From: a virus
Lineage: Duplodnaviria; Heunggongvirae; Uroviricota; Caudoviricetes
IMG/VR virus record: IMGVR_UViG_2713896901_000003
Span: 1 to 9,599 of that record
Reading direction: 5' to 3' (one strand)
Length of the DNA: 9,599 nucleotides
Shown in pieces: positions 3,509 to 4,880 of this stretch. The notes under the pieces were generated by a model. It saw only the letters and a program-made list of their open reading frames with translations, searched no databases and was not told where the DNA came from. The position numbers and the translations under genes are program-made. Every line of letters begins with the position of its first letter. Position 1 is the stretch's first letter.

Positions 3509-3596
3509 CTTATAACCAAAGATAACTCAAGTTATAAAAAATAGCAATAACCTTTGTTATTTTACTTTGGATAACCGTAGTTATAGATTTGTGGGT
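3509..3596. promoter_or_regulatory. OR: three operators with divergent promoters PR and PRM
   Basis: Three 14-bp palindromic operators ATAAC-N4-GTTAT at 3522-3535, 3547-3560 and 3571-3584, with 25 and 24 bp between centres. PRM (plus): -35 TTTACT 3561-3566, 17-bp spacer, -10 TAGATT 3584-3589, putting the start at the cI ATG (leaderless, as in lambda). PR (minus): -35 TTGCTA 3547..3542, 17-bp spacer, -10 TATCTT 3524..3519. Confidence 0.75.
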
Positions 3597-4304
3597 ATGA
3601 AAACATTCGCAGAAAGACTAAATGCAGCCATGAGCTCAGCAGGTGTGTCGCAATCACAGCTTGCTGACATGGTTGGAATATCTCAGCCAGCCATACAGAA
3701 GATGTCATCCGGTAAAACAAACGGATCTCGCAAGATGGTTGAATTAGCCAATGCTTTAAAAGTACGCCCTGAATGGCTTAGCTCTGGTATTGGTGAAATG
3801 AGGGATGGTACACATGAAGAACCATCCAATGTCCGTGAATCATCTTTAAAAGCTGTGGTATGGGAAGATATTAAAAGAAACGATGACGAGTTTGTCGCGT
3901 TGCCTCTTCTTAACGTTTCGCTTTCAGCTGGAAACGGTAGCTGCGAGCTAGAGGAATCATCAGAGTTCTCTTTGGTTTTCAGAAAGTACTATCTGAAAAA
4001 GATGGGGGTATCTGAAAGATCAGCCAAGCTAGTTAGGGTTGTAGGGCAAAGCATGGAACCAACGCTTCACGACGGAGATGTTGTTGGTGTTAACACACAA
4101 GATACCACAATCAGAGATGGTAAAACCTACGCTATTTGCCAGTCTGATTTGTTACGAGTAAAAACATTAATCGCCACCCCTACATCGGTGATAATCAGAT
4201 CAATAAATCGCGAAGAGTACCCAGATGAAGTAATGGATAGAGATGAATTTCATGAAACCGTAAGGATTATTGGCAGAGTATTCTGGTCGTCTCATAGTTG
4301 GTAA
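3597..4304 (+). CDS. cI: CI-type prophage repressor (HTH plus S24/LexA-like self-cleavage domain), 235 aa
   Basis: N-terminal HTH QSQLADMVGISQPAIQKM. Ala-Gly cleavage site in LSAGNG. Catalytic serine motif GQSMEP and lysine in RVKTL. The track starts at TTG 3567; ATG 3597 coincides with the predicted PRM start. Confidence 0.9.
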   Translation: MKTFAERLNAAMSSAGVSQSQLADMVGISQPAIQKMSSGKTNGSRKMVELANALKVRPEWLSSGIGEMRDGTHEEPSNVRESSLKAVVWEDIKRNDDEFVALPLLNVSLSAGNGSCELEESSEFSLVFRKYYLKKMGVSERSAKLVRVVGQSMEPTLHDGDVVGVNTQDTTIRDGKTYAICQSDLLRVKTLIATPTSVIIRSINREEYPDEVMDRDEFHETVRIIGRVFWSSHSW

Positions 4305-4344
4305 CCGATAATCAGAAGAAGACTTACGGAAGTGCGGAGGGATA

Positions 4345-4641
4345 ATGGAATTTCTGATAGTTTTTGTTGTTGTTTTGGTCATCATTCTTTTTGTTTTGCT
4401 AAGCATTAGCAAAAAGCTATCTCAAATGATTGAACATAGCTCTAATCGCGCAAAAGAAGAAGACCATCTAATTGATATAAAAGAGATTCTCTCTGATATA
4501 AAAATCACATTAGATGAAATAAAATACACAACAGATCTAATTGAACAGTATAAAATACCAACCCCAAACGAAAGAAAAGCAATAGATCAATATCGTATTG
4601 ACTTAGAAATCGACGAAATGCTAAGCAAAAGAAAAGACTAA
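4345..4641 (+). CDS. Small single-pass membrane protein (98 aa), accessory gene downstream of cI
   Basis: GGAGG at 4336-4340 before the ATG. N-terminal hydrophobic helix EFLIVFVVVLVIILFVLLSI, then a charged, probably helical tail. Strongly AT-rich compared with cI. Sits where lambda carries rexAB. Confidence 0.75.
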   Translation: MEFLIVFVVVLVIILFVLLSISKKLSQMIEHSSNRAKEEDHLIDIKEILSDIKITLDEIKYTTDLIEQYKIPTPNERKAIDQYRIDLEIDEMLSKRKD

Positions 4642-4646
4642 AAACA

Positions 4647-4673
4647 CCCGGCCTCAGCGCCGGGTTTTCTTTT
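4647..4673 (+). terminator. Intrinsic terminator ending the cI operon
   Basis: Stem CCCGGC (4647-4652) / GCCGGG (4659-4664) with a 6-nt loop, followed by TTTTCTTTT. Confidence 0.8.
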
Positions 4674-4794
4674 CCTGCCGTCCCCCACCCAATCAACCAT
4701 CCTCATCATAGACAAGCATCAAGCCAAAGGTAGCACTTTCACCCCGCACGCAAGCCCTCAAACACCAATCAATCAGCAACATTTACAAAAATAA

Positions 4795-4880
4795 AATACC
4801 TTTGTTATCCATCACTTATAACTTATTTACCATAAAATATAAACTAAGTTATTGACCACACCTATAACCTAAGTTATCTT
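4795..4880 (+). promoter_or_regulatory. OL operators and PL promoter
   Basis: Operators of the OR family: ATAAACTAAGTTAT (4839-4852) and ATAACCTAAGTTAT (4864-4877), plus AATACCTTTGTTAT (4795-4808) and a weak half-site near 4818-4831. PL: -35 TTGACC 4852-4857, 17-bp spacer, -10 TATCTT 4875-4880. Confidence 0.72.

Follow-up and report, generated by a model that had tools for sequence, protein, structure and literature searches.

Analysis of a 9,599-nucleotide stretch of viral DNA (IMG/VR record IMGVR_UViG_2713896901_000003, positions 1 to 9,599; hereafter the window) revealed that its positions 3509-4880 belong to the immunity module of a lambdoid E. coli prophage, which we judge, at a probability of roughly 90%, to act as a bistable switch of the lambda type. 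The divergent genes cro and cI enclose a short right operator region (OR), in which three dyad operators overlap two opposed promoters, the right promoter (PR) and the repressor-maintenance promoter (PRM). CI combines an N-terminal helix-turn-helix with a C-terminal S24 domain that carries an Ala-Gly site and a Ser/Lys dyad. Beyond cI, a second operator cluster with one exact site (OL1) and one site of a single mismatch (OL2) lies at the left promoter (PL), followed by nutL and an N-like open reading frame. The evidence consists of the sites themselves, which occur more often than chance predicts, sit on the promoters, are conserved among relatives and co-vary with the recognition helices of the two regulators. 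A previous sequence-only reading, which described a switch of lambda layout with its own specificity, was essentially right, with three corrections: only two left operator (OL) sites stand up, the half-site departs from that of lambda by one base and is set at a different spacing, and the DNA-binding domain of CI is 434-like.

The operator is the palindrome ATAAC-N4-GTTAT, which has even symmetry with the dyad between base pairs, and a core of 14 bp that extends to about 16 bp with its flanks. Four exact copies occur in the window (3522-3535, 3547-3560, 3571-3584 and 4864-4877), compared to 0.00 expected from 200 dinucleotide-preserving shuffles of the window. Allowing one mismatch gives five matches against 0.23 expected and adds the site at 4839-4852, and all five fall within the two intergenic control regions. 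At up to two mismatches, the whole window holds 10 matches against 3.8 ± 2.0 expected, and the above-chance signal is gone. Three exact copies make up OR, with centres 25 and 24 bp apart, in agreement with the three sites at 24-25 bp spacing that the sequence-only reading had described. OR1 (ATAACTCAAGTTAT, 3522-3535) lies between the -35 and -10 elements of PR and overlaps the latter, OR2 (ATAACCTTTGTTAT, 3547-3560) adjoins the -35 elements of both PR and PRM at 43.5 bp upstream of the cI ATG, and OR3 (ATAACCGTAGTTAT, 3571-3584) is located inside the PRM spacer, its last base being the first base of the PRM -10. On the left side, OL1 (ATAACCTAAGTTAT, 4864-4877) overlaps the PL -10, and OL2 (ATAAACTAAGTTAT, 4839-4852), with its centre 25 bp away, ends on the first base of the PL -35. 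A further match on the OR side (3512-3525), which has two mismatches and overlaps OR1, is probably no operator and appears to be lineage-specific. Its ATAAC half (3512-3516), 10 bp from OR1 and near the PR transcription start, is kept in the lineages of the window and of phage PA28, but the relatives in Kluyvera, Enterobacter and Entomohabitans lack it.

PL (4852-4880, plus strand) was called by the promoter scan with 9/12 consensus matches, and consists of TTGACC, a 17-nt spacer and TATCTT (4875-4880). The other two promoters were uncalled by the scan and were placed by hand via their hexamers and conservation. PR occupies 3547-3519 on the minus strand, with the -35 element TTGCTA (3547-3542) and the -10 element TATCTT (3524-3519) separated by 17 nt, whereas PRM occupies 3561-3589 on the plus strand, with TTTACT (3561-3566), a 17-nt spacer and TAGATT (3584-3589). 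The -10 hexamer TATCTT is therefore shared by PR and PL, as had been noted earlier; in the relatives, the PR -10 is TATnnT and overlaps the end of OR1. From the PRM hexamer TAGATT to the cI ATG (3597) there are 7 nt without a Shine-Dalgarno sequence, and the relatives have TAnATT followed by 6-7 non-conserved nt before the ATG. Because this distance is conserved and the intervening sequence is non-conserved and free of a Shine-Dalgarno sequence in all relatives, the cI mRNA should be leaderless, with the PRM transcript starting at or beside the ATG as in lambda, a placement already recognized by the sequence-only reading. In the same orientation, lambda reads GGTGATAGATT-TAACGT-ATG and the window AGTTATAGATT-TGTGGGT-ATG; the PRM -10 is the same hexamer in both, with a gap of 6 nt in lambda compared to 7 nt here. 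The centre of OR2 lies 30.5 bp from the first base of the PRM -10 (30 bp in lambda) and the centre of OR3 6.5 bp from it (7 bp in lambda), and the OR spacing of 25/24 bp compares to 24/23 bp in lambda. Altogether, the distances from OR1-OR3 to PR and PRM and from OL1-OL2 to PL equal those of lambda within 1 bp, which bears out the proposal that the layout copies lambda.

The cI gene (3597-4304, plus strand) encodes a protein of 235 aa (PHROG 4), which matches Pfam HTH_3 (E 7.5e-7) and Peptidase_S24 (E 3.5e-17) and has the recognition helix Q30-P-A-I-Q-K35. Its autocleavage features are of the LexA/lambda-CI type, namely Ala111-Gly112, Ser152 in the motif GQSMEP, and Lys189. The closest solved structure to the N-terminal domain (residues 4-64) is that of the 434 repressor, with an E-value of about 1e-7. 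The cro gene (3261-3485, minus strand) spans 74 codons including the stop codon, starts with the ATG at 3485 after the Shine-Dalgarno sequence AAGAGG, and encodes the helix Q-P-A-V-H-K. Cro matches Pfam YdaS_toxin/P22_Cro/HTH_3 and PHROG 35 (transcriptional repressor); it is a Cro-family protein, to which Xfaso-1 Cro (PDB 3bd1) comes closest among solved structures. Both regulators differ from those of lambda, as previously stated: CI shares 23% identity with lambda CI, and BLASTP gave no alignment between Cro and lambda Cro.

CI relatives were gathered from one genome per species and from IMG/VR. All relatives with the CI helix QPAIQK, found in E. coli lineages, Kluyvera, Enterobacter and Entomohabitans, possess three sites whose distances from the cI start codon are unchanged, with ATAAC/GTTAT halves and central spacers that vary freely. 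In eight divergent representatives of this group (CI 41-100% identical), the half-site columns (n = 30) have a mean identity of 98%, compared to 76% for the central spacer columns (n = 12) and 70% for the remaining OR intergenic columns (n = 51), and none of 100000 random 30-column sets reaches the half-site identity. OR1 and OR3 are perfect palindromes in 8/8 divergent relatives, and OL1 is perfect in all relatives. OR2 has one mismatch in several of them (ATAAGCATTGTTAT, ATAACAATTGTTGT and ATAACTTTTTTTAT), and the C-to-A deviation of OL2 is common to all. Sister modules from Izhakiella, Erwinia and uncultured viral contigs keep the identical three-site spacing, and in each group two further copies of its own site, separated by about 25 bp, follow downstream and correspond to OL. 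The half-site changes together with both recognition helices: ATAAC accompanies CI QPAIQK and Cro QPAVHK in the window and its group, ACAAC accompanies CI QAAIQK and Cro QQAVYK in Izhakiella (L007 and L083), ATCGC accompanies CI QSSVNK and Cro QSTICD in Erwinia (L008, L084, L087 and L089), and ATAGC accompanies CI QPSVWK and Cro QPSVWA in L086. Since the half-sites are conserved and change in step with the DNA-reading helices of the two proteins, we conclude that the palindromes are very probably the operators.

These pairings agree with the “evolutionary code” of Cro (Hall, Lefevre and Cordes 2005; Hall et al. 2011, 2019), in which recognition-helix position H1 Pro pairs with T and H1 Gln with A at half-site position +2, H3 Ala with A and H3 Ser/Thr with G at +5, and H6 Lys with C and H6 Gln with G at +6 (PMC6649833). 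The Cro helix of the window aligns residue for residue with that of lambda Cro (GVTQPAVHK versus GVYQSAINK), which assigns Gln to H1, Ala to H3 and Lys to H6. With the half-site numbered x-A-T-A-A-C, in a full site of 16 bp whose dyad falls between base pairs, Cro QPAVHK and xATAAC satisfy all three pairs of the code (+2 A, +5 A and +6 C). As the code predicts, G stands at +5 in the two sister groups, ATCGC and ATAGC, whose Cro has Thr or Ser at H3, and the CI helices follow the same H1 and H3 pairings. Further co-variation, outside the published three-pair code, is seen between H2 and H5 (P/H, Q/Y, S/C and P/W) and positions +3 and +4, with the CI helices varying in parallel. H2 Ser of lambda Cro contacts base pairs 4 and 5, and H2 is Pro here. 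Tentatively, this lineage of CI, Cro and operators might represent a natural specificity series of at least four heteroimmune types, all with an N4 spacer, in which +3 to +5 change with H2, H3 and H5 in both proteins despite their different folds, though we hold this to be possible rather than probable. If true, it would extend the Cro code to new positions and to CI, and provide a tractable set for orthogonal switches.

The same data bear on the idea that only one of the regulators, or a host factor, binds the palindromes, or that these result from the repetition of promoter elements. The TAT of GTTAT also starts the -10 hexamers of PR and PL, and the folds of CI and Cro differ, the former having a 434-like five-helix domain and the latter belonging to the Cro family. 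However, conservation extends to both halves of each palindrome, even where a half lies clear of any promoter hexamer, the half-site changes track both recognition helices in four specificity groups, and these changes obey the Cro code; we consider this explanation very improbable compared to operators shared by CI and Cro.

At OL, the sequence-only reading stands in part. It had proposed at least three sites spaced by 24-25 bp, of which OL1 and OL2 fit, whereas the third site is weak and lies either 44 or 21 bp from OL2. The distal candidate (AATACCTTTGTTAT, 4795-4808), at 44 bp, has two mismatches and only its right half GTTAT is good; the chance-level count of two-mismatch sites in the window bears on such a third site. 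The element at the OL3 position (ATAACTTATTTACC, 4818-4831) has an intact left half-site and a degenerate right half. It lies 21 bp from OL2 and is the only element at a distance comparable to the 20 bp between OL2 and OL3 of lambda. Its TATAAC is kept in 8/9 aligned sequences and is TATAAT in the other, and its homologue is a one-mismatch palindrome (ATAACTTATGTGAT) in L011 and L091. In addition, the GTTAT(C) of the distal site and an upstream AAAATAAA block (4786-4793) are conserved across nine relatives. The two lone half-sites, GTTAT (4804-4808) and ATAAC (4818-4822), stand back to back, 9 bp apart, with degenerate partner halves, and both are conserved in nearly all of the nine OL regions compared. 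They may be a weak OL3 and OL4 that need cooperativity, or something else.

Based on this architecture, we propose a scheme in which the filling order, cooperativity, PRM activation, OL-OR looping and RecA-induced cleavage are taken by analogy from lambda and 434. CI and Cro would bind as dimers to the same even-symmetry operators. In the lysogen, CI on OR1 and OR2 and on OL1 and OL2 would cover the -10 and -35 elements of PR and PL, with which the operators overlap in the sequence, and thereby keep the early lytic genes off. CI at OR2 adjoins the PRM -35 and would probably activate PRM, giving a leaderless cI-orf98 mRNA that extends to the terminator at 4646-4675, whereas CI bound to OR3 within PRM would curb further CI production by negative autoregulation. 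Upon DNA damage, RecA would stimulate the self-cleavage of CI at Ala111-Gly112 via Ser152 and Lys189. Subsequently, PR and PL would fire, and Cro, for which OR3 is the likely first target, would shut PRM from the same sites. The degeneracy of the O2 sites in most relatives suggests pairwise cooperativity as in lambda. Looping between OL and OR across 1.34 kb is possible but uncertain, because OL3 has decayed in the window.

Several points weigh against a switch of this type. The searchable literature contains no binding, transcription or immunity experiment on this module, and PR has 8/12 consensus matches, below the promoter-scan threshold of 9, and was thus uncalled. OR3 is perfect in every relative, unlike the weak OR3 of lambda, which suggests that the filling order of CI may differ from that in lambda; the weak third OL site means that an OL3/OR3 octamer loop in the style of lambda may not operate. 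Moreover, phage 933W, whose repressor binds non-cooperatively, demonstrates that a lambdoid switch can be without cooperativity and without OL3 (PMC3317979, PMC5977221). It is conceivable, albeit rather doubtful, that the module has a lambda-like layout and a different operation, without cooperativity, looping or negative autoregulation, or with early filling of OR3, as in the “hair-trigger” Shiga toxin (Stx) phages. Such an operation would accord with a perfect OR3 next to degenerate OR2 and OL2, with the decayed OL3, with the precedent of 933W and with the occurrence of the module in Stx1a phages. Nevertheless, a weak O2 beside a strong O1 at 25 bp is the signature of the cooperative pairs of lambda, and the PRM geometry is that of lambda, whereas affinities are not decidable from sequence. 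The lambda-type bistable switch remains our preferred reading.

The 9.6-kb window as a whole is a lambdoid prophage early region in an orientation opposite to that of the usual lambda map. The minus strand carries the DnaB-like P (367-1818), O (1793-2692), cII (2864-3163; Pfam Phage_CII, E 1.6e-34) and, between cII and cro, nutR (3253-3216), and the OR region separates cro from cI. On the plus strand, cI is followed by orf98 (4345-4641) and by an intrinsic terminator (4646-4675), detected by the terminator scan as a 7-bp stem with six G-C pairs followed by TTTCTTTT, which ends the cI-orf98 transcript. Downstream of OL and PL, nutL (boxA 4927-4937, boxB 4948-4964, plus strand) precedes the N-like gene (5120-5326, plus strand), which has a GTG start after GGAGG and encodes 68 aa (PHROG 271). 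It is directly followed by a gene for a 227-aa protein with “nucleotide modification associated domain 5” (Nmad5; 5328-6011, plus strand; E 3e-70) and then by a gene for a 160-aa protein of unknown function (6063-6545, plus strand; PHROG 1636); ea10, cIII, kil, gam, bet and exo also lie downstream of the Nmad5 gene. Both the Nmad5 gene and the 160-aa gene, which belong to the early leftward operon, have no counterpart at the equivalent position of VT2-Sakai.

The two nut sites share an identical 17-nt boxB hairpin (GGGGATGATTCGTCCCC), each preceded by the boxA (G/C)GCTCTTTAA. This boxB differs in each relative that shares the same immunity cassette. The last 22 residues of the N-like protein equal those of VT2-Sakai N except for one Thr-to-Cys change, whereas its arginine-rich N-terminus is different. 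The different boxB in cassette-sharing relatives, together with these features of the N-like protein, indicates that the N/nut specificity module recombines independently of the immunity module. The product of orf98 (98 aa, PHROG 18389 of unknown function, no Pfam hit) has an N-terminal hydrophobic helix and is a small membrane-anchored protein, probably co-transcribed with cI. Located between cI and the terminator, orf98 occupies the slot held by rexAB in lambda; as cI and OL are separated by anything from about 0.8 to 2.5 kb in the relatives, this is a variable cargo slot, and the orf98 protein is a candidate exclusion or defence factor expressed in the lysogen.

A pattern match inside the 5' end of cII (3141-3154, plus strand; TTGCTGTAACTTGT) is the candidate CII-binding site of the repressor-establishment promoter (PRE). 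It falls within the segment 98% identical to VT2-Sakai, is 3 bp off the position expected from the annotated CII-binding site of that phage, and has one repeat as TTGT, not TTGC. In addition, a terminator-shaped hairpin at 3191-3214 on the plus strand, the strand toward cI, reads ACGCATC-TGTT-GATGCGT followed by TTTTTTG. With the putative CII site about 40 nt upstream, it would fall within the initial tens of nucleotides transcribed from PRE, and it co-occurs with this nutR boxB in seven IMG/VR loci. This hairpin may belong to tR1 on the opposite strand or act as a PRE attenuator.

The immunity module is a mosaic cassette spanning about 3189-4944. Its flanks are ~98% identical to Stx phages of the 933W/VT2-Sakai type, whereas 3189-4878 has no similarity to VT2-Sakai. 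The cassette is present in 168 of 5426 complete E. coli genomes. Among phages, the Stx1a-converting phage Stx1a_10051 (LC744178) matches the whole module at 98.2% identity, the match of SH2026Stx1 is confined to cro-OR-cI at 94.5% identity, and PA28 and a dozen Stx1a phages share 78% DNA identity, the CI of PA28 being 85% identical. PA28 has the same half-sites as the window and different spacers. The genes of SH2026Stx1 and PA28 are already annotated as CI and Cro; however, the records of Stx1a_10051, SH2026Stx1 and PA28 are without operator or promoter annotation, and their cI-OL cargo and N/nut module differ from those of the window. Outside these three groups, a search of 50,697 phage records found no CI of more than about 40% identity.

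The module is a well-supported, ordinary member of a textbook type of system and not a new kind, with genes already annotated as CI and Cro in deposited phages. Its value lies in the assignment of operators and promoters for an immunity type that is found in about 3% of complete E. coli genomes and, among phages, in Stx1a-converting ones. The known operators allow prediction of superinfection immunity groups among Stx phages, design of prophage-induction reporters and choice of orthogonal repressor-operator pairs for synthetic circuits.

Compared with known lambdoid groups, the comparison that the sequence-only reading had called for, the operator is distinct from those of lambda, 933W, BAA2326, CP-933P and N15. 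The 933W/VT2-Sakai phages share with the window the overall map and the replication, cII and recombination genes at 98% identity, but their cI, cro and operators are unrelated (AAATACAATATGTACTT-like, of the AAATACA...TGTACTT type), and 933W has two OL sites only. The lack of similarity to VT2-Sakai across 3189-4878, together with its different annotated operators, sets the window apart from the 933W specificity. OR1 of BAA2326 is ATAACTGTGCGTAATG, with weak symmetry, CP-933P has 18-bp GTTTAGTAA repeats, and the N15 site is TTATAGCTAGCTATAA. The operators of 434 and P22 also differ. No searchable paper contains the operator strings or their generic pattern, although older work on Stx-phage immunity may hold a prior description.

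These comparisons leave very little room for the module being a copy of a characterized immunity type (lambda, 434, P22, 933W, H-19B, BAA2326, CP-933P or N15) with operators already known. Such an origin might be suggested by the flanks of the 933W/VT2-Sakai type, by a database note that names the PA28 Cro “Cro of bacteriophage BP-933W”, and by the presence of the module in E. coli H19, the source of H-19B. However, the operators of VT2-Sakai/933W, BAA2326, CP-933P, N15 and lambda all differ, the phage records hold no close CI beyond the three Stx1a-phage groups, and the operator strings are absent from searchable papers. The identity with 933W implied by the PA28 note is rejected, as the immunity segment and operators of VT2-Sakai are unrelated. 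Likewise, the module is not that of H-19B, because the single copy in strain H19 lies in a stx-less P22-like prophage. Judging from the sequence, the module is predicted to be heteroimmune to lambda, 434 and 933W, and homoimmune with phages of the PA28 and SH2026Stx1 types.

The relation to 434 is found at the level of fold only. The 434 operators are 14 bp long, ACAA-N6-TTGT (PDB 2or1, 1per), and the 434 recognition helix is QQSIEQ. The A at position 1 is reportedly read by the first Gln of helix 3 (Gln28-A1), as Aggarwal and colleagues are said to have described in 1988. The 14-bp operator core, the A at position 1 and the Gln first in the recognition helix are shared with the window, whereas position 2 is C in 434 and T here, Gln29 is replaced by Pro, and position 5 is C here. 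The operator ATAA-N6-TTAT and the helix QPAIQK thus separate the window from the imm434 specificity, and cross-immunity with 434 is not expected from these sequences. Moreover, 434 Cro is a cI-derived paralogue (PMC6649833), whereas Cro here is a true Cro-family protein. As a separate observation, the ACAAC-N4-GTTGT site of the Izhakiella sister group fits the 434 core ACAA-N6-TTGT.

Lambda itself shares the divergent cro and cI around a three-site OR, the OL/PL region beyond cI with its cargo and terminator, the flanking CII/PRE and N/nut elements, and a CI that consists of a helix-turn-helix and an S24 domain with an Ala-Gly cleavage site. The sites are clearly related, as the lambda half-site TATCAC and TATAAC here differ at one position (+4), and the Cro helices are QSAINK and QPAVHK, respectively. 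However, the lambda operator is 17 bp long with a central base pair (TATCACCGCCAGAGGTA-type, TATCACCGCCAGTGGTA), compared to 16 bp, an N4 spacer and even symmetry here; this even-symmetry site and the low identity of CI exclude the imm-lambda specificity. In addition, OR3 is weak in lambda and a perfect palindrome here, where OL3 is degenerate, the OL-OR distance is 2.4 kb in lambda and 1.34 kb here, and orf98 stands in place of rexAB. Altogether, the module fits both the lambda paradigm and the Cro recognition code as one more well-behaved case, and challenges neither.

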